Source of the DNA: a virus
Taxonomy: Duplodnaviria > Heunggongvirae > Uroviricota > Caudoviricetes
DNA: 11,406 nucleotides
Direction: 5' to 3' (one strand)
Virus record (IMG/VR): IMGVR_UViG_2671181122_000011
In this document: positions 1 through 7,152 of the stretch, piece after piece
Layout of the letters: each line of letters begins with the position of its first letter
Numbering within the stretch: the stretch's first letter is position 1
The notes under the pieces: generated by a model
Told to the model about the DNA's origin: nothing
Database searches by the model: none
Seen by the model: only the letters and a program-made list of their open reading frames with translations
Position numbers and translations under genes: made by a program

Positions 1-1461
1 ATGAAAAAATTACTGCATCTTTTTTTCCCGCTCTCGCTGCGGGTACGTTTTCTGTTAGCAACGGCAGCAGTAGTATTGGTGCTTTCGCTTGCCTACGGAA
101 TGGTTGCGCTGATCGGTTATAGCGTCAGTTTCGATAAAACCACGTTTCGGCTGTTACGTGGCGAGAGCAATCTGTTCTATACCCTTGCGAAGTGGGAAAA
201 CAATAAGTTGCATGTCGAGTTACCCGAAAATATCGACAAGCAAAGCCCCACCATGACGCTAATTTATGATGAGAACGGGCAGCTTTTATGGGCGCAACGT
301 GACGTGCCCTGGCTGATGAAGATGATCCAGCCTGACTGGCTGAAATCGAATGGTTTTCATGAAATTGAAGCGGATGTTAACGATACCAGCCTCTTGCTGA
401 GTGGAGATCATTCTATACAGCAACAGTTGCAGGAAGTGCGGGAAGATGATGACGACGCGGAGATGACCCACTCGGTGGCGGTAAACGTCTACCCGGCAAC
501 ATCGCGGATGCCAAAGTTAACCATTGTGGTGGTGGATACCATTCCGGTGGAGCTAAAAAGTTCCTATATGGTCTGGAGCTGGTTTATCTATGTGCTCTCA
601 GCCAATCTGCTGTTAGTGATCCCGCTGCTGTGGGTCGCCGCCTGGTGGAGTTTACGCCCCATCGAAGCCCTGGCAAAAGAAGTCCGCGAACTGGAAGAAC
701 ATAACCGCGAATTGCTCAATCCAGCCACAACGCGAGAACTGACCAGTCTGGTACGAAACCTGAACCGACTGTTAAAAAGTGAACGCGAACGTTACGACAA
801 ATATCGTACGACGCTCACCGACCTGACCCATAGTCTGAAAACGCCACTGGCGGTGCTGCAAAGTACGCTGCGTTCTCTGCGTAGTGAGAAGATGAGCGTC
901 AGTGATGCTGAGCCGGTAATGCTGGAGCAAATCAGCCGCATTTCACAGCAAATTGGCTACTACCTGCATCGTGCCAGTATGCGCGGCGGGACATTGCTTA
1001 GCCGCGAGCTGCATCCGGTCGCCCCACTGCTGGACAATCTCACCTCGGCGCTGAACAAAGTGTATCAACGCAAAGGGGTCAATATCTCTCTCGATATTTC
1101 GCCAGAGATCAGCTTTGTCGGTGAGCAGAACGATTTTGTCGAGGTGATGGGCAACGTGCTGGATAATGCCTGTAAATATTGCCTCGAGTTTGTCGAAATA
1201 TCTGCAAGGCAAACAGACGAGCATCTCTATATTGTGGTCGAGGATGATGGCCCCGGTATTCCCTTAAGCAAGCGAGAGGTCATTTTCGACCGTGGTCAAC
1301 GGGTTGATACTTTACGCCCTGGGCAAGGTGTAGGGCTGGCGGTAGCCCGCGAAATCACCGAGCAGTATGAGGGTAAAATCGTCGCCGGAGAGAGCATGCT
1401 GGGCGGTGCGCGGATGGAGGTGATTTTTGGTCGCCAGCATTCTGCGCCGAAAGATGAATAA
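1..1461 (+). CDS. phoQ: Sensor histidine kinase PhoQ (complete, 486 aa)
   Basis: Full-length ORF from ATG at 1 to TAA at 1459-1461. The translation matches E. coli PhoQ along its length as I recall it (N-terminal TM segment, acidic periplasmic patch EDDDDAE, HAMP, H-box [13 protein letters not shown]-box [12 protein letters not shown]). Confidence 0.95.
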
Positions 1462-1970
1462 ATATGTCCTTTTATCACCACAGCAAGGCAACCAATTGAT
1501 TTAATTAAACAACTCACACTGCAAAAAGTGCTAAAAACAGCAAATTGACTACACCATTAACTACACCGTTCGGTGCACTGTATGAAACAACGTTGAACAA
1601 ATAGACACAAGAAATATACAGGCGGGTAATCTTTCCAGGGGGAAGCGCACCAATTCATGAGGGGCGTTAATGTCGATATGGGGATCCCCATAACGGGGCT
1701 ACCAGATTTTTTTTCCGGTTAACTGTTAATCAGGCTGGTGGGCTTTACCTGTTCGGTAGGTGTTATGATTATCGTAATACCTTTCCCCCAATGGGGTAAA
1801 AGCTCCAACCGTAACGATGTTCGTTATGGTTGCCTTGATGGTCTGAGTGGTCATTTTGACCATTCAGCCAATGACCTTAATCAGAATTTTTCGCTAAAAA
1901 ATGACGTTGGCCACGTCATCCGGAAAGCACAAAATCACGTCGATTTTTAATGAACGGTTAAACCGTCTTT

Positions 1971-2010
1971 TTGTCACGGTGTGTCACTGGTTGTCACTCT
2001 CCGTCACGAT
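1971..2010. repeat. Four tandem 10-bp repeats each carrying GTCAC (ttgtcacggt / gtgtcactgg / ttgtcactct / ccgtcacgat)
   Basis: GTCAC recurs at 1973, 1983, 1993 and 2003, an exact 10-bp phasing. A nearby palindrome ATGACG-N7-CGTCAT lies at 1901..1919. Confidence 0.5.
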
Positions 2011-2057
2011 TGAGGTGGTGGACATTCTGCCCGACCGCGCATTTTTGCGCTATCGGG

Positions 2058-2291
2058 AATATCAAACAGTTACCGCGCCGACTTCCTCAAATTGAGGTTT
2101 CCGAAAATATCAGCGGGTTAGCGATTAAGCTGACGAGTAATTAAACTGCGAAAATTTCGTAGTTTGTGACTATCTGAAAGATAGTCGGTTGTTCCGGCCT
2201 CAGCCGTTGGCTGTTTCCGAAAATATCAGTAGGTTAGGCCAAAGCTCAAAAATGAGCTTTGGAACAATATCAACAAGTTACCGCCGTAACC
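2058..2291. repeat. Pair of direct repeats plus hairpins in a noncoding region
   Basis: GTTTCCGAAAATATCAG(C/T)(G/A)GGTTAG occurs at 2097..2120 and 2213..2236. AATATCAA(AC/CA)AGTTACCGC occurs at 2058..2078 and 2264..2284. A perfect hairpin AAAGCTCA-aaaa-TGAGCTTT lies at 2241..2260 and GACTATC-tgaaa-GATAGTC at 2168..2186. Confidence 0.5.
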
Positions 2292-2559
2292 GCTCCGGCT
2301 TCTTCCAGTGGTACGTAATTTTCTCCGTTTCCCGATACAGTGCCACGCGGCGATTGTAGGCCAGCATTTCAAGAACGCGGATCCGTATGTTGCGCATATC
2401 CACATCATTAAGCTGGATACCATCACGGCGCATCACCTCAGCAACAACACGCGCATAATTTTCGGCTGTCACGCTGTCCGGCTGCGTGGCCTGTTCGTCA
2501 GTCTGCTGGCTGATTCCACCAGCACGGCGGATTAATCCCAGTATTTCGGCTTCTGTCAT
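2278..2559 (-). CDS. Hypothetical protein, 93 aa, function unknown
   Basis: ORF with ATG at 2557-2559 and a GGGTG motif just upstream. Its start lies about 30 bp from cos copy A and it is transcribed away from it. I do not recognise the family. Confidence 0.45.
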   Translation of the reverse strand: MTEAEILGLIRRAGGISQQTDEQATQPDSVTAENYARVVAEVMRRDGIQLNDVDMRNIRIRVLEMLAYNRRVALYRETEKITYHWKKPERLRR

Positions 2560-2592
2560 TGTGCACCCATCGTTCTGATTGTCTGGTGTCGT

Positions 2593-2815
2593 CGGGTCCT
2601 TCCTGGAATTATGGACCCGTTACGGGGCGGCGACCTCGCGGTTTTTATCTGTTTATGAAAATTTTCCGGCAAAAGTCAGATCCGTTCTTCTTCTCTGTAA
2701 CAGACTGTTTAACAATGAAAATATTAAAAAAAGAAAGGATCTGACACGAGGCATTTTAGCCAGAAAATGCCATTATCAGATCCTTTCTCATTTTTGTTCA
2801 ATAATTGCGCGTCTG
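2593..2815 (+). other. Lambda-type cos site, copy A (cosQ-cosN-cosB)
   Basis: GGGCGGCGACCT, the 12-nt lambda cohesive-end sequence, lies at 2625..2636 preceded by CGGGTCCTTCC...GTTACG (cosQ-like). Downstream are TTTATGAAAATTTTCCGG, TCCGTTCTTCTTC (R3-like), an AT-rich I1-like stretch, AAAGAAAGGA (R2-like) and TCCTTTCTCATTTTTGTTC (R1-like), matching the recalled first ~190 bp of lambda. Confidence 0.8.
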
Positions 2816-3358
2816 TTACTCGCCTTTCTTCTGTAGCAACTTTTCCGGTACGTTTCCGGTTGTTTCTTTCAAGTAATCAGCCAGTATCTGTGGGAGGTTG
2901 TCGGCAACTCTGGCACTGGCATTACAGGCTTTAACCACTTCCCTTTTAAGCCTATCCAGCATGGCGGGGGTAATCTGTGGGAAGCTCCTTTGCATAGTAA
3001 GCGGGAGGCTGTCCATGATTGATGAAATCTGACTCGCCAGCTTTGAAAGCGCGTACAGGCAAAACTCAGTATCAATCACGTCACCGCGATCGCGCTCGTT
3101 TTTAAGTTCCTGCGCCTCCGCCTGTGCTGTCAGTAATCTGATCCTGACTCGTAAGAGTTCATCATCATCAATATCGCCTTTGTCGTTTGTAAGCTGGCTA
3201 ATTGCATTGTTAACCCTATTGTCTATCACGCTGGCAACATCATAAAACGCCTCACGGCCTTTACGTTCAACGGGAGTCACTCCCCACTTGTCGAACGCTG
3301 TCGCACTTACACGGCAGCTTTTCGCCATGTTTTTTTTGTTCATCAGGTGCGATTTCAT
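2816..3358 (-). CDS. Terminase small subunit, lambda Nu1-like (180 aa)
   Basis: N-terminus MNKKNMAKSCRVSATAFDKWGV...YDVASVI parallels lambda Nu1 MEVNKKQLADIFGASIRTIQNWQ...YDSAAVI (wHTH). Located about 135 bp downstream of cos copy B in the lambda-like arrangement. The true start may be the internal ATG at 3343. An 8-bp-stem hairpin (3362..3395) sits just 5' of the start. Confidence 0.85.
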   Translation of the reverse strand: MKSHLMNKKNMAKSCRVSATAFDKWGVTPVERKGREAFYDVASVIDNRVNNAISQLTNDKGDIDDDELLRVRIRLLTAQAEAQELKNERDRGDVIDTEFCLYALSKLASQISSIMDSLPLTMQRSFPQITPAMLDRLKREVVKACNASARVADNLPQILADYLKETTGNVPEKLLQKKGE

Positions 3359-3534
3359 TAATACACCAACTTAATTACTGCTTCAGGTTGGTGTATTGTT
3401 TGCATCTTTCCCTTTTTATTCATAAAGATAGATCAAACAACGAAACCACCACCACCCCCCTGAAAAGGCTCATAAATAGCGAAAAACCGCTAGGTCGCCG
3501 CCCCGTAACGGGCCATAATTCCAGGAAGGACCCG
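3359..3534 (-). other. Lambda-type cos site, copy B (cosQ-cosN plus divergent cosB-like spacer), cognate orientation for terS
   Basis: Reverse complement of 3470..3534 reads TTTACGGGTCCTTCCTGGAATTATGGCCCGTTACGGGGCGGCGACCTAGCGGTTTTTCGCTATTTATGA. The cosN 12-mer corresponds to 3492..3503 on the minus strand. Sequence between cosN and the terS start diverges from lambda cosB. Confidence 0.75.
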
Positions 3535-3535
3535 T

Positions 3536-3557
3536 AAAAAAGCCGGATTTCTCCGGC
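3536..3557 (-). terminator. Intrinsic terminator (GCCGGAGAAATCCGGC hairpin plus T-run on minus strand)
   Basis: Hairpin at 3542..3557 with adjacent A-run at 3536..3541 on plus (T-run on minus), immediately 3' of the 137-aa gene. Confidence 0.6.
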
Positions 3558-3563
3558 CTTGTC

Positions 3564-3977
3564 TCAGATGGTTTTCAGTATGCGATCGATGTCGCCGTCA
3601 TCGCCCTGGTTTCTGCCATCGTATGCCATGCCAGCTGATACGGCTTGCGGGCTGTGCATGTCCATAAAGTTTTCAAAGGCTGCGGTAAGTTCCGGCGCAA
3701 CCTTCGGACGTTCCTGCTCTATGGTCATGCTAAGGATGCTTTTAGCCGTACCAACATCGATACAAGGCACGTTTGCCATTGCACGCAACAGCGGCTGATA
3801 GTCTTTATGCTCATGAAGCGCCATAATCGCATCAGCGCGCGGCTTGTCCTGCTCTTCCAGTTTGTTTAGTTGATATACGGCCTCATAGGTTGATAAACCT
3901 CTGTCAGCCATTGCCCGCGCTTCGACTTTAAATTTACTCGCCAGCGGTAGCGTCATGATGCTTTCATTCGTTGCCAT
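3564..3977 (-). CDS. Hypothetical head-module protein, 137 aa
   Basis: ORF with strong RBS (AGGGGGAA) 5' of the ATG at 3975-3977. Starts 12 bp after the gpD-like stop, so it belongs to the same operon. No family recognised. Confidence 0.6.
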   Translation of the reverse strand: MATNESIMTLPLASKFKVEARAMADRGLSTYEAVYQLNKLEEQDKPRADAIMALHEHKDYQPLLRAMANVPCIDVGTAKSILSMTIEQERPKVAPELTAAFENFMDMHSPQAVSAGMAYDGRNQGDDGDIDRILKTI

Positions 3978-3989
3978 CGTTCCCCCTGC

Positions 3990-4325
3990 TTATCGGGCCA
4001 GCGGCTGAACGGATACGCCGGAACCCGCAAAGGCGGCGCATTTTTTCGCATCGGTGTCGACGCTCTCAGGCCAGTTAACGGCGGCAATATTGAATATCCC
4101 CGTCTTGTAACACTGTGCTGATTTCTGCTTTGACGTGCCCACAGGGTACGAGGTCAGATAAACAGCCTTGCCAGATTCCTGACCATCCCACGGCTTAAAC
4201 TCGCCATTGTCTGCCAGCATCAGCGGGGTAAATTCCTGAATAACGCCAGCATCAGCGGCAAAATGTACCAACGTCGTGGATACCTGCTGACTGCCTGCAA
4301 ATAACTCAATGTATGGAGTGTCCAT
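3990..4325 (-). CDS. Head decoration protein, lambda gpD-like (111 aa)
   Basis: TPLMLADNGEFKPWDG...CYKTGIFNIAAVNWPES...KKCAAFAGSGVSVQ parallels lambda gpD TPLMLDTSSRKLVAWDG...FYKSGTFRYEDVLWPEA...KKRTAFAGTAISIV. RBS GGGGGGA upstream. Confidence 0.85.
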   Translation of the reverse strand: MDTPYIELFAGSQQVSTTLVHFAADAGVIQEFTPLMLADNGEFKPWDGQESGKAVYLTSYPVGTSKQKSAQCYKTGIFNIAAVNWPESVDTDAKKCAAFAGSGVSVQPLAR

Positions 4326-4337
4326 AGAATCCCCCCG

Positions 4338-5393
4338 TTAACCAATTTTGACGGTAACAAATTTGCGAATATCTGCCGGTACCGGCTGCGGTGCACTGTG
4401 TGTCTGCACGTACTCAATCGCCGGATCGCCGTCCTCAATCCAGTTTTTCGGGTAAAACATGTTTTGTGTTGCGCCCGTTCTTACCGCTTCCTGATCCATT
4501 ATCGCACCATAGGCCACCAGCCCTTTATTGTTGGTGTTACCCAGGACCAGCAAATCAGGCTCAAGGAAATATTTTTCGGTACCATCGCTGTCAGTGTATT
4601 TGCCGGAATAGACGATAAGGGCCAGATCACCAAGATAGCCTTTAAAGCTCACCACTTCGCCCAGGTTTTTACAGGCCAGTTCGGCGGCGGATTCTGAACC
4701 ACGGGAAAGATCGTACAGCTCACGGAATTTTTTAAAGCTGCCTAATGTGCGCCATACCTCAGCGCCCATAATCATGACGTTTGCGGGGCAACCAGCCTGA
4801 TCAGCATAAAGCTCGATGTCATAGATTGGGTCGTGCATGTCTTTATCCTGCTCGGACCATTTTTTACCCTTGGCCTGCTCTATGATGCAGTTTTCCGGTA
4901 TTTTCCAGTCGATTTCATAGCGTTCTATGCCTTCGCCCTCAATGATGTTTTTTCCGGTCGTTACCGCATTCACCGCCAGCCATTCCACGCGTGCCTTAAT
5001 GGCGTTTATCTGGCGGCGCATGTTGCCAGTAATCAGGCGCATACGGCGATAGGTAGGGTCGTTAAGCTGTGCCGGATCTTCTCCAGCCATGCGCATGATG
5101 GTTTTCGTTGGATCGATTTCGTGCTTTGGCTTCATGTAGCCAGGTTTGATTGTGCTGGTTTCGTACCCTTTATCGCGCTGAACCTGGCTACCCACCATAG
5201 GCGAACAAAACGCCGACATGGTGACTTCTTCAATGTCCAGGGTATCCAGCATGATGTTTTGCGTGCTGAATGTCGCCACGTTCGGGAAAAACAGCGTGGT
5301 AAACAGAGGGCTGAATTTAAAATCCGCAATATCCCCGCGATTCAGGTACATGAAAAGCTGGTTAGTGTTAAGTGCCGTTGCTTTGCCTGCCAT
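4338..5393 (-). CDS. Major capsid protein, lambda gpE-like (351 aa)
   Basis: Conserved blocks relative to lambda gpE: FKFSPLF..LFF, PGYMKPKHEIDP, EDPAQLNDPTYRRMR, WSEQDKDMHDPIYDIELYA, RGSESAAELACKNLGEVVSFKGYLGDLALIVYSGKY, YPKNWIEDGDPA. RBS GGGGGTGA; start overlaps the upstream ORF stop (TAATG). Confidence 0.9.
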   Translation of the reverse strand: MAGKATALNTNQLFMYLNRGDIADFKFSPLFTTLFFPNVATFSTQNIMLDTLDIEEVTMSAFCSPMVGSQVQRDKGYETSTIKPGYMKPKHEIDPTKTIMRMAGEDPAQLNDPTYRRMRLITGNMRRQINAIKARVEWLAVNAVTTGKNIIEGEGIERYEIDWKIPENCIIEQAKGKKWSEQDKDMHDPIYDIELYADQAGCPANVMIMGAEVWRTLGSFKKFRELYDLSRGSESAAELACKNLGEVVSFKGYLGDLALIVYSGKYTDSDGTEKYFLEPDLLVLGNTNNKGLVAYGAIMDQEAVRTGATQNMFYPKNWIEDGDPAIEYVQTHSAPQPVPADIRKFVTVKIG

Positions 5394-5599
5394 TATTCAC
5401 CCCCATAATTTTTATGCATCCCAAGCGCCGCAAGTAAATAAGAGCGTACAAGTGAACCTATCGACGGCTCCGGCGTCATCAGCGGATCCAGTCCAGCCGC
5501 AACGCCAGCTTCATAGTTTTTTTTGTGGCGCTGCTTGAGCACCTCCACGATTTCGGGGCTTATGTACACCGAAACACCGCCTTTTTTCTCTTCAGCCAT
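5393..5599 (-). CDS. Small protein (about 68 aa) translationally coupled to the major capsid gene; function unknown
   Basis: Stop codon overlaps the capsid ATG (TAATG). Start is probably the ATG at 5597-5599 (AGAGGAA about 10 nt upstream); an alternative ATG at 5632 has no RBS. Confidence 0.5.
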   Translation of the reverse strand: MAEEKKGGVSVYISPEIVEVLKQRHKKNYEAGVAAGLDPLMTPEPSIGSLVRSYLLAALGMHKNYGGE

Positions 5600-5632
5600 A
5601 GTAAGAAATTCCTCTTCGACTAAAAAAATCAT

Positions 5633-5700
5633 AACTGGATGTTTATCCAGTCCTGATTATAATCAGAATTGCATTTTATGCAATGATATTGAGTTATGTT
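5633..5700 (-). promoter_or_regulatory. Candidate promoter/operator of the capsid operon, with nested palindromes
   Basis: Perfect palindrome TGATTATAATCA (5653..5664) contains TATAAT. TTGCAT lies 16 bp upstream on the minus strand (plus coordinates about 5681..5686). Additional dyads CTGGAT-gttt-ATCCAG (5635..5650) and ATTGCAT-ttt-ATGCAAT (5671..5687). Confidence 0.4.
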
Positions 5701-5763
5701 GCAAATTATGAAATGATTATCCCGATCACGAACGCCAGTGCATCCAAAAACCTCATATGCAAA

Positions 5764-5802
5764 AGCCCGATAAGAACCCTCTGACCTTATCGGGCTTTTT
5801 TT
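5764..5802 (+). terminator. Intrinsic terminator on plus strand (11-bp stem AGCCCGATAAG/CTTATCGGGCT plus T7)
   Basis: Strong hairpin followed by TTTTTTT, with no annotated plus-strand gene upstream; may end a short plus-strand transcript. Confidence 0.5.
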
Positions 5803-5807
5803 GGGCG

Positions 5808-5830
5808 CAAAAAAGCCGGATTGCTCCGGC
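5808..5830 (-). terminator. Intrinsic terminator (GCCGGAGCAATCCGGC plus T-run on minus strand)
   Basis: Hairpin at 5815..5830 with A-run at 5808..5814 on plus, 3' of the 74-aa gene. Second copy of the hairpin family seen at 3542 and 6179. Confidence 0.55.
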
Positions 5831-5850
5831 TATGTGTGCTGTGTGCTGGC

Positions 5851-6075
5851 TCAGTCTCTGATCTCTTTCAGAAATTCTATCAATGCATCTATCTGTTCAG
5901 GATTTACCGCCAGCATTTCACCGGATAGAGCACATCTCACAAAACCATGCTGATCCTTTTCAATCAGTGCGCCCGTCTCCAGGAATGCGCGGTAATCATT
6001 GATGCTCATCGTCTCCATGTTGTCAGCATGGTATTTATCACGCTGTTTTAATATCTCATCAAATTTCATCGGCAT
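5851..6075 (-). CDS. Hypothetical protein, 74 aa
   Basis: ORF with GAGGA RBS about 9 nt upstream of the ATG at 6073-6075, bracketed by terminators. Family not recognised. Confidence 0.5.
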   Translation of the reverse strand: MPMKFDEILKQRDKYHADNMETMSINDYRAFLETGALIEKDQHGFVRCALSGEMLAVNPEQIDALIEFLKEIRD

Positions 6076-6171
6076 TGTTTTTTTCCTCTGTTGTGTCTGT
6101 TTGTTTCAGATAGTAACTATGCCTGACCGTGACGAAAACCCGGTAATGCGCCATACCGTTTCAACTGGTGC

Positions 6172-6194
6172 AAAAAAAGCCGGATTTCTCCGGC
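6172..6194 (-). terminator. Intrinsic terminator (GCCGGAGAAATCCGGC plus T-run on minus strand)
   Basis: Hairpin at 6179..6194 with A7 at 6172..6178 on plus, 3' of the PerC-like gene. Third copy of the hairpin family. Confidence 0.55.
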
Positions 6195-6201
6195 TGTTTG
6201 A

Positions 6202-6474
6202 TTAGCTGTCCTGGTAATTGCGCCATATTTCATCACCAGCACCATCTATACCCATTTCGGCATAAGTGCGATCGACTGCCTTTTTCAGGTCTCCGAAATT
6301 ATCCGGCGGCTCCGGTGCCCTCTGTGCCTTCCTTGAACATTCCAGCCGTCGCATCGTGATGTGATGCCGTTCCTTGTCTGTCTCCACCAGCTGCATGACT
6401 TCACCCCATCGCGCCGCCGCCCTCCGGTAAAAGCCTTTCGCCTCCAGTTCCTCCGCTATGCGGTCATGTACCAT
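6202..6474 (-). CDS. PerC-family-like transcriptional activator (90 aa)
   Basis: MVHDRIAEELEAKGFYRRAAARWGEVM...PPDNFGDL resembles the PerC/Pch motif pattern as I recall it. Start at 6472-6474 is preceded by GAGGGGGTG and lies just 3' of the ssb stop, so the longer 130-aa ORF is an over-extension. Confidence 0.65.
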   Translation of the reverse strand: MVHDRIAEELEAKGFYRRAAARWGEVMQLVETDKERHHITMRRLECSRKAQRAPEPPDNFGDLKKAVDRTYAEMGIDGAGDEIWRNYQDS

Positions 6475-6484
6475 CGTCACCCCC

Positions 6485-6895
6485 TCAGAACGAAATATCA
6501 TCACCGTAAGAGTCATCGCCTCCCGCTGGTGGCTGATTACCCTGTGTGCCTGTGGTTTTGCGTCTGTTCCCGCCTGGACGTGCCGCGCGGGCACTGATTA
6601 CGCTGTCTGCGATAACCTGCCAGCCCTGCCGCGTTTCTCCGTTCTGTCCGGTCCACTGGCTTACCTGCATCGTGCCGGATACGCTGGCAACATCGCCTTT
6701 TTGATGTTTAGCCAGGAAGTCGGCCTGTTTGCCAAATGCGATGACCGATAACCATAACGTCGCCTGTCCGTCCTGTGCCTGGCTGCATGGCAAAGATACC
6801 GCCATACGCGCCAGCGTCATCGGTGTGCCCTTGCTGGTCTGTTTTACCTGCGGGTCGTCCACCAGCCGCCCGTAAGCGGCTATCTGTGCCGTCAT
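6485..6895 (-). CDS. ssb: Single-stranded DNA-binding protein (136 aa)
   Basis: OB-fold pattern (GRLVDDPQV..., WLSVIAFGKQADFLAKHQKGD, QWTGQNGETR), Gly/Pro-rich linker and acidic C-terminal tip DDISF (compare E. coli SSB DDDIPF). RBS GGAGAGGTGG. Confidence 0.85.
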   Translation of the reverse strand: MTAQIAAYGRLVDDPQVKQTSKGTPMTLARMAVSLPCSQAQDGQATLWLSVIAFGKQADFLAKHQKGDVASVSGTMQVSQWTGQNGETRQGWQVIADSVISARAARPGGNRRKTTGTQGNQPPAGGDDSYGDDISF

Positions 6896-7092
6896 AATTC
6901 CACCTCTCCGGTTTTAACGTTGATGGTTGTTACCTGTTCCGCTTCGGCAATCTCCCGTTCTGTCAGCGTGGCAAAGTTTGCCGCCGCCGTGGTCATGAAT
7001 GCGCTTATCAGGTCGGGATGTTCCTTCGCGTATCCTTCCCGCGTGTGGCGGTCTATCGTTCTGATTGCCACCTTTAAGGTGTGCTCAGTCAT
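6892..7092 (-). CDS. Hypothetical small protein (about 66 aa) upstream of ssb
   Basis: ORF whose stop overlaps the ssb start. I chose the ATG at 7090-7092 rather than 7173 because the longer form would run through the iteron array. Confidence 0.4.
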   Translation of the reverse strand: MTEHTLKVAIRTIDRHTREGYAKEHPDLISAFMTTAAANFATLTEREIAEAEQVTTINVKTGEVEL

Positions 7093-7152
7093 GTCTAACG
7101 CTTTATATTTTGGCTCTGTTCTGTCTCTGCGTTTTTGGGTCATTTCTCGCAA

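Follow-up and report, generated by a model that had tools for sequence, protein, structure and literature searches.

Capsid, decoration and scaffold-like genes beside terS and cos in a probable truncated phage-inducible chromosomal island of Escherichia coli

The IMG/VR record IMGVR_UViG_2671181122_000011 (Duplodnaviria; Heunggongvirae; Uroviricota; Caudoviricetes) comprises 11,406 nucleotides, a stretch that we refer to in full as the window. Between positions 2816 and 5599 it holds five co-oriented minus-strand genes, which encode a 68-amino-acid (aa) protein, relatives of the phage lambda major capsid protein gpE and head decoration protein gpD, a 137-aa protein, and a small terminase (TerS) resembling lambda Nu1. 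A preliminary description, made by reading the sequence, had reported these genes, and open reading frames (ORFs), Pfam and PHROGs place them where it did. It suggested that they belong to a helper-dependent satellite that supplies its own capsid lattice and whose gene set differs from those of P4-like elements, Rpp-type PICIs (phage-inducible chromosomal islands) and fully capsid-forming PICIs. Our analysis assigns the locus, with high confidence, to the packaging half of a classical Gram-negative cos-type phage-inducible chromosomal island (PICI) of the EcCIRM12579/O157:H7 EC4115 type, a sister of EcCICFT073, present here as a truncated and inactivated copy.

Results

Capsid, decoration and scaffold-like genes

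The gpE-like gene (4338-5393, minus strand) encodes a 351-aa major capsid protein (MCP) homolog recognized by Pfam Phage_cap_E (2e-49) and phrog_29 (4e-106) and 43% identical to lambda gpE. Among the best matches listed, its identity to phage proteins does not exceed 47.5%, and a 50,697-record phage collection yielded 408 matching records, every one of them in the band below 60% identity. The adjoining gpD-like gene (3990-4325, minus strand) specifies a 111-aa decoration protein (Dec; Pfam HDPD, 6e-17; phrog_49, 3.5e-26) with 34% identity to lambda gpD.

The 137-aa protein is encoded next in the series (3564-3977, minus strand). It matches phrog_1999 over its full length (4e-67) and also, at 6e-9, the head-protease family phrog_53, there at the extreme C-terminus. 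Lambda Nu3 (2.7e-26) and the C-terminus of PhiR12 gpC/Nu3 (8e-68, whole profile) match phrog_1999 as well; tblastn aligns residues 49-131 of the 137-aa protein to the last ~80 residues of the PhiR12 phage gpC/Nu3 ORF at 37-39% identity; and hhalign, comparing the profile of the 137-aa family with that of Nu3/gpC C-termini, returned a probability of 97.4% (E 1.5e-11). An exhaustive phmmer search recovered only eight representatives of the protein, and the link to Nu3 came by way of the PHROG profiles and hhalign. Since phrog_1999 is common to the 137-aa protein, Nu3 and PhiR12 gpC, and hhalign concurs, sequence comparison places the protein in the Nu3 scaffold-domain family, and scaffold activity is predicted for it. 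With this assignment, the earlier statement that the module has no scaffold no longer holds.

The resulting order of MCP, Dec and Nu3-like genes is the reverse of lambda Nu3-D-E and is kept in every relative that we examined. The capsid-before-decoration arrangement remarked on in the preliminary description is therefore a conserved one, and this reversed order, together with the satellite lineage traced across relatives below, bears out its view that the locus is not a simple deletion derivative of a lambdoid head region.

Ahead of the MCP gene stands that of the 68-aa protein (5393-5599, minus strand; phrog_3255), whose stop codon overlaps the MCP start. RefSeq annotates the same 207-nucleotide (nt) gene in relatives, and phrog_3255 was found in E. 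coli and Salmonella only. A ribbon-helix-helix fold was considered for its beta-alpha-alpha pattern, but an AlphaFold2 model (predicted local distance difference test, pLDDT, 72; two helices) had no Foldseek match with E < 1, and the protein is left without assignment. Profile and structure searches, which had been proposed for the two proteins left without assignment, have thus placed the 137-aa protein in the Nu3 family and found no significant structural neighbor for the 68-aa one.

The module ends in an intrinsic terminator hairpin with a T-run (3533-3562, minus strand; read from the sequence, direct-repeat family D1), which closes the putative capsid operon. It is one of three near-identical hairpins, reading AAAAAAGCCGGATTTCTCCGGC on the plus strand; the other two, at 5806-5835 and 6170-6199, were both scored as terminators. 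The three follow the 137-aa, 74-aa and PerC genes and split the unidirectional late region into separate units.

Small terminase, cos sites and a specificity cassette

The terS gene (2816-3358, minus strand) codes for a full-length, 180-aa Nu1-type small terminase (Pfam Phage_Nu1, 2e-23; phrog_57, 3e-53). Its product is 35% identical to lambda Nu1 (residues 6-166 versus 3-180), the C-terminal half included; residues 100-181 of lambda Nu1 bind the large terminase, TerL (cited in PMC6739421). The best phage match is N15 gp1, at 46%. In EcCICFT073 the same slot holds rppA (c1503, 144 aa). Rpp proteins, of 144-153 aa, have a TerS-like DNA-binding domain and are without the TerL-binding half (Fillol-Salom 2019), and RppA aligns to Nu1 residues 3-55 only. 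We rejected the possibility that the window TerS is a close Rpp homolog, having found no BLASTP similarity to RppA and no sequence match to solved PDB chains, RppC among them. A scan of NCBIfam with seven element proteins and three from relatives gave nothing for the window proteins; sub-threshold HTH_BldC matches were confined to RppA and the Rpp-like protein of locus L007 (17.4 and 15.7 bits, against a 77-bit cut-off).

Two cos sites flank terS. The first, cos1 (3459-3534, minus strand), is a cosQ/cosN region in lambda-like orientation upstream of terS; within TTACGGGGCGGCGACCT, between the 137-aa gene and terS, the lambda cosN 12-mer GGGCGGCGACCT occurs without mismatch (3492-3503, minus strand). 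This site and the terminator beside it had both been recognized in the preliminary description, which missed an inverted cosQ/cosN copy, cos2 (2593-2669, plus strand; inverted repeats I1/I2), downstream of terS with its cosN, also an exact match, at 2625-2636. By chance, 0.04 matches to cosN would be expected. Each cosN copy sits at the core of one arm of a 77-nt inverted repeat (2593-2669 and 3459-3534), and the 792 bp between the repeats (2670-3461, minus strand) hold cosB-type sequences and terS.

In blastn comparison with EcCICFT073, identity was 93-94% over 2258-2669 and 3462-5843, and nil over 2670-3461. Alignment of the cos region gave the same result at closer range: sequence through and just beyond cosN is common to the window, lambda and EcCICFT073, whereas the cosB side is unrelated. 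These comparisons indicate that a ~0.8-kb specificity cassette, made up of cosB and either terS or rpp, has been exchanged between near-identical islands, its ends coinciding with the inverted cos repeats. Because the 77-nt inverted repeat brackets exactly the segment that differs (2670-3461), we suggest that the repeats serve as recombination boundaries of a swappable packaging-specificity cassette. Among 5,426 complete E. coli genomes, this terS allele is present in 768 and rppA in 97; this MCP allele is present in 598.

Just upstream of the terS start, within the island-specific cosB, we observed a perfect 11-bp inverted repeat, AATACACCAAC ... GTTGGTGTATT (3359-3400), which is a candidate TerS-binding or operator site.

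Relationship to catalogued PICIs

The window begins in the E. coli chromosome with phoQ (1-1461, plus strand). An exact match to the attachment (att) core GGACATATTT at 1460-1469 (minus strand) overlaps the phoQ stop codon and marks the phoQ-side boundary of the element; this is the only copy of the core inside the window. The ycfD(roxA)-phoQ site is a PICI-specific att site that prophages do not use, and both the site and the core GGACATATTT are given for EcCICFT073 and EcCIRM12579 (Table S1, PMC6092414). From 1470 to ~8765 extends a block of co-oriented minus-strand genes. Megablast against the 5,426 genomes found at least 80% of this block in 356 of them, many being O55:H7 and O157:H7 strains, with identity of ~98-99% for the best.

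EcCIRM12579 (O55:H7, ycfD-phoQ, 11.2 kb) and the copy in strain CB9615 have been catalogued as PICIs (Table S1, PMC6092414; Fillol-Salom et al. 2018, ISME J). The intact element of O55:H7 CB9615 sits between phoQ and roxA (ycfD), at coordinates that agree with Table S1. It begins with a tyrosine integrase, an alpA-type helix-turn-helix (HTH) gene, Icd-like genes, small ORFs, DUF4222, a RepA helicase and a small gene, and continues with SSB, PerC, small genes including that of the 74-aa protein, and then the genes for the 68-aa protein, MCP, Dec, the 137-aa protein, TerS and a 93-aa protein. The window agrees with the EcCIRM12579/CB9615/EC4115 element in att site, genes and gene order, with ~98-99% DNA identity over 1462-8765; it differs from the EcCIRM12579 type in ending at 8765, in a 1-nt frameshift in RepA and in ~210 bp of the left arm at 1868-2077. 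The tyrosine integrase and the alpA-type regulator are absent from the window copy and present in the intact, 98-99% identical relatives, and it is because those relatives carry them that we assign the window copy, a remnant, to the PICI family. EcCIEDL933, our first suspicion as to its identity, was discarded, as the literature gives that element as the prototype of the capsid-forming PICIs (cf-PICIs).

With EcCICFT073, the prototype Gram-negative Rpp-type cos PICI, the element shares its att site, layout and gene order as well as two cos sites with lambda-identical cosN. The proteins are 96.3% (MCP; c1499), 97.3% (Dec; c1500), 97.1% (137-aa), 97% (SSB), 91% (93-aa) and 68% (68-aa) identical. 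The two islands differ in the cassette, which in the window consists of the full-length Nu1-type terS and a different cosB, and in the replication gene, a primase in EcCICFT073 and a RepA helicase here. The naming of c1499 as a capsid gene and c1500 as a head-decoration gene dates from 2018, and the same paper notes that TerS is encoded by only part of the E. coli PICIs (PMC6092414). Given the common att site, the common 68aa-MCP-Dec-137aa module and these protein identities, the earlier judgment that the gene set is unlike that of Rpp-type PICIs is mistaken: the Rpp slot is filled by a 180-aa full-length Nu1 homolog, while the other module genes match the Rpp-type prototype. An element in Nissle 1917 has a 99.8% identical terS gene in the same 68aa-MCP-Dec-137aa-TerS-93aa module, and differs in its integrase, its att site (tRNA-Pro/yejM region) and its replication gene, a primase.

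Truncation and inactivation of the window copy

The PICI sequence stops at 8765 and is followed by one unassigned base and then by the outer edge of the e14 pix (Pin recombination) site TTCTCCCAAACCAACGTTTATGAAAA (8764-8793), upstream of pinE; the breakpoint (8764-8767) is where PICI sequence gives way to that of e14 (pix site, pinE, mcrA, icd'). The genes to the right of the block, pinE (8812-9402), mcrA (9509-10342), an icd 3' fragment (10576-10740) and ycgX, make up the right end of prophage e14. As the PICI sequence ends here, the side of the island with DUF4222, the small ORFs, the Icd-like genes, alpA and int is missing. None of the 5,426 complete E. coli genomes contains this junction of PICI and pix, which looks like the endpoint of an illegitimate deletion or inversion, or an assembly error. 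Pin-mediated crossover was considered as the cause of the truncation and found unsupported, since the junction lies at the outer edge of pix, away from its centre, and nothing resembling pix is present at that point in the intact PICI. The fusion leaves phoQ and the right end of e14 (pinE, mcrA, icd') only ~7.3 kb apart.

The RepA-family helicase gene (7344-8743, minus strand) is split into two ORFs, 7853-8743 and 7344-7832. Alignment with the intact CB9615 gene traces the frameshift to a single G missing from the G-run at ~7880-7883, which may reflect genuine decay or a sequencing error in the homopolymer. The window copy is unable to excise or replicate and, provided the assembly is correct, is a dead remnant private to this genome.

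Related elements and selection on the module

We assembled a census of ten elements: the window, six other E. coli loci, and one each from Kluyvera, Cedecea and Superficieibacter. In E. coli, copies are found at ycfD-phoQ, at tRNA-Pro/yejM, and inside the gpE genes of lambdoid prophages. Searches by tblastn with lambda and PhiR12 proteins found portal, protease and TerL within none of the ten, and neither the element nor its nine relatives contain tail or lysis genes. MCP-Dec adjoins PICI replication genes in every case, namely DUF4222 with primase or RepA in nine, and RepA alone, as far as detected, in L012. Lambda-like portal, protease, D and E genes do occur near L006 and L008 (both E. coli) and L011 (Cedecea sp.); these are genes of a helper prophage whose capsid gene the island interrupts, the helper-embedded configuration already published (PMC10111431). 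The arrangement found is one in which a capsid-morphogenesis gene and terS or rpp lie downstream of the replication origin, with no other structural or lysis genes.

The preliminary description had noted the lack of portal, protease and large terminase in the window and had proposed a census to learn whether portal and terL are consistently missing; they are, and its view of a helper-dependent satellite with its own cos and TerS stands. The module comes in two subtypes, 68aa-MCP-Dec-Nu3-like and MCP-Dec followed by an excisionase-like 127-aa HTH gene; the 68-aa gene is present in the five loci with the Nu3-like gene and absent from the five with the HTH-type third gene.

A codon-level comparison took in six loci, from lineages that have diverged to 53-64% amino-acid identity. 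None of the six has a broken MCP or Dec gene, and dN/dS values are 0.07-0.22 for MCP, 0.07-0.30 for Dec and 0.12-0.16 for TerS; the three genes are under purifying selection in the PICI lineages examined. Relatives with portal and terL, or pseudogenised capsid genes, had been named beforehand as findings that would overturn the satellite interpretation, and neither appeared in the census or the codon comparison. With portal and terL absent from relatives and the capsid genes intact, the locus belongs to a satellite lineage and is not a decayed prophage.

The terminal gene of the packaging region, for the 93-aa protein (2278-2559, minus strand; phrog_1561), is full-length in seven of the ten census loci (window, L001, L003, L006, L007, L009 and L012) and was undetected in L008, L010 and L011. 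A single-sequence AlphaFold2 model of its product (pLDDT 71, three helices) had no significant Foldseek match, and a relaxed Pfam scan of the small proteins gave noise only. The TerS of the helper-embedded PICI in L008 (9487-10038) is 72% identical to lambda Nu1, with an internal stop codon, and is far closer to phage TerS than the window TerS is. A search of species-representative genomes with the single MCP sequence found no related loci; its profile version found three only.

Replication region, accessory genes and left arm

Directly 3' of RepA, iterons TTTTnCnCCTCACTTTT at 7161, 7244 and 7329 (repeat families D3/D4, spacing 83-85 nt) define a region, 7134-7345, that is the probable replication origin; in PICIs the origin lies directly 3' of the replication gene (PMC6092414). 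The element thus has a replicase gene of its own (RepA, 7344-8743, frameshifted) followed by 3' iterons (7161-7345). Farther along the minus strand are SSB (6485-6895; Pfam SSB, 1.7e-16), a PerC-family regulator (6202-6474; Pfam PerC, 1e-42), which is given as an accessory gene of the PICI family (Table S1, PMC6092414), and a gene for a hypothetical 74-aa protein (5851-6075; phrog_1957), which the terminator copy at 5806-5835 follows.

The left arm (1470-2277, 0.8 kb) is ORF-poor and has a 25-nt direct repeat, GTTTCCGAAAATATCAG..GGTTAG, at 2097 and 2213; its stretch at 1868-2077 (~210 bp) does not align to the CB9615 copy. Rfam gave no matches anywhere in the window.

Comparison with other satellites

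The cf-PICIs (EcCIEDL933; Alqurainy et al. 2023) resemble the element in having an HK97-fold MCP and their own small terminase, and their int/alpA/rep side is related to that of classical PICIs. They also encode portal, maturation protease, head-tail connectors, HNH and TerL, which the window and its relatives are without: Pfam, PHROGs and tblastn with lambda-type queries found no portal, protease or TerL in the window or intact relatives, and the annotation of the intact relatives has no connector or HNH gene. P4-like satellites differ in architecture, and psu, delta, sid, epsilon and the alpha primase-helicase are absent among the Pfam and PHROG matches of ten element ORFs, RepA having been identified by homology and RefSeq only. 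Helper-embedded PICIs (11capE type; PMC10111431) have the same backbone of MCP, Dec, small gene and TerS with DUF4222 and primase. They differ in lying inside the helper gpE gene, in a third gene for a 127-aa excisionase-like HTH protein, in lacking the 68-aa gene and in an MCP 53% identical to that of the window. The staphylococcal PICI SaPIbov5 is likewise a cos satellite with a homolog of its helper's MCP, Ccm. Ccm demonstrably makes small capsids, whereas the MCP of the E. coli PICI, which comes with decoration and scaffold-like proteins of its own, has shown no phenotype.

Discussion

The gene set described here is not new. It belongs to an already catalogued classical PICI with the standard packaging module of its family: of 29 reference Gram-negative PICIs, 21 have an MCP gene, which transfer does not require (PMC10111431), and the SatelliteFinder PICI core consists of integrase, regulator, pri-rep, capsid morphogenesis and terS, with 97% of complete Type A elements in E. 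coli (PMC10085698).

For EcCICFT073, it has been established that helper-dependent induction works through alpA, that excision and replication proceed by the island's own functions, and that cos packaging needs the helper terminase, with Rpp having to pair with the helper TerS. An intact element of the present type most probably operates along similar lines. A lambdoid cos helper would induce alpA, and the island would excise and replicate from its own RepA or primase and iteron origin, as in EcCICFT073. The genes for the 68-aa protein, MCP, Dec and the Nu3-like protein would presumably form one operon, judging from the terminator at its end (3533-3562) and another before it (5806-5835). The full-length Nu1-type TerS is predicted to bind the island cosB beside the lambda-identical cosN, and its C-terminal half, by homology to Nu1, could recruit the helper TerL directly, replacing the Rpp-TerS heterocomplex. 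DNA would then enter heads with the helper portal and protease, and tails would come from the helper, again as in EcCICFT073.

Several points weigh against this account. In the one published attempt to mobilise TerS-type E. coli PICIs no helper was found, and the two islands, EcCIIHE3034 (TerS status per PMC6092414) and EcCI18098, were not mobilised after mitomycin C induction (PMC6092414); the argument for TerS-directed packaging is therefore one from homology, and a direct contact of TerS with TerL is suggested by 35% identity to Nu1. The second, inverted cos site has no role in the scheme. Moreover, the scaffold-like gene, MCP and Dec are under strong purifying selection, which fits poorly with the idea that they are dispensable and would mean that laboratory assays miss their function.

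The published genetics of EcCICFT073 are most informative on this last point. Transfer with the resident helper, lambda and phage 80 stays intact when c1499 or c1500 is deleted or when cat takes the place of c1499; with phage 80 it reaches up to ~1e6 transductants/ml, no c1499 phenotype was found by the authors, and the island was reported to be packaged in phage-sized capsids. These results argue against the trio of capsid, decoration and scaffold-like proteins as an obligatory lattice, and with it against the proposal that the element spreads by supplying its own capsid lattice; a facultative or helper-specific part in capsid building is possible. We conclude that the trio is a standard, selectively maintained, non-essential part of the PICI family, and since it is selectively maintained, it does something. 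The most plausible role, we surmise, is that with certain natural helpers it changes how heads assemble or provides shells that are mixed or encoded by the island.

How it might do so can be pictured in more than one way. The island may be a partial capsid-former, which builds its own decorated shell from MCP, Dec and the Nu3-like protein on a helper portal, uses the helper protease, TerL and tails together with its own TerS and cos, and would stand between classical and capsid-forming PICIs. We hold this only tentatively. MCP, a cognate Dec and a Nu3-family domain do occur together in one terminator-ended unit; the trio genes are intact and under purifying selection in lineages down to 53-64% amino-acid identity; the MCP, less than 48% identical to phage MCPs among the matches listed, is not a recent pick-up; and a decoration protein would seem sensible only if the island MCP reaches an expanded lattice. 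Yet EcCICFT073, whose MCP is 96% identical, needs neither c1499 nor c1500 for transfer and shows no c1499 phenotype, its DNA is reportedly packaged at phage length into large capsids, and the second PICI subtype has MCP and Dec without the scaffold-like gene.

It is also conceivable, with about the same modest weight, that the trio acts as a Ccm-like modulator, with MCP, Dec and the scaffold-like protein co-assembling or competing with the helper capsid proteins and thereby redirecting head size, or interfering, with certain helpers only. Precedent comes from SaPIbov5, in which an MCP homolog makes small capsids, and from PmCI172, which makes small heads and in which the same is suspected. The selection on the trio is in keeping with this possibility, and by our calculation the 11.2-kb genome is about one quarter of that of lambda, so that a smaller head could hold a single copy. 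Nevertheless, interference with lambda maps to rppA and persists when c1499 or c1500 is deleted; no small capsids have been reported for EcCICFT073 with lambda; and the retention of a dedicated decoration protein is left unexplained.

A more specific form of the first possibility, to which we give a rather low probability, is that the TerS-type PICIs are half capsid-formers. With natural lambdoid helpers, the trio would assemble island-specific decorated shells on helper portals, perhaps with a smaller T number suited to a single 11-kb genome, and these would be filled by way of the island TerS and helper TerL. If true, such islands would be a mechanistic and evolutionary intermediate between classical PICIs and cf-PICIs that the lambda and phage-80 systems have missed.

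A decayed lambdoid prophage with leftover E, D, Nu3 and Nu1 fragments, to which the damage in the window copy (RepA frameshift, loss of the int side) might point, is highly improbable and is in effect ruled out by the census, the selection data and published mobilisation: the E-D-Nu3-like order is the reverse of that of lambda and conserved, a compact 11-kb architecture with integrase, alpA and pri/rep recurs at ycfD-phoQ, at tRNA-Pro/yejM and in other genera, the genes are intact with dN/dS well below 1, and the sister element EcCICFT073 has been mobilised experimentally at high frequency.

Publications from 2018 to 2023 cover the element together with its att site, the capsid and decoration genes and the existence of TerS-bearing variants, and SatelliteFinder already classifies such loci. 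What we add is the assignment of the 137-aa protein to the Nu3 family, the cos-bounded terS/rpp cassette, and figures from the census and on selection. We did not find the Nu3 assignment or the cos-bounded cassette stated in the PICI literature examined, though they may already be known; both could guide experiments. The module is a common feature of the species, since ~11-14% of complete E. coli genomes carry the capsid/TerS module, and TerS-type islands are ~8 times commoner than the RppA type that has been studied (768 versus 97 genomes).

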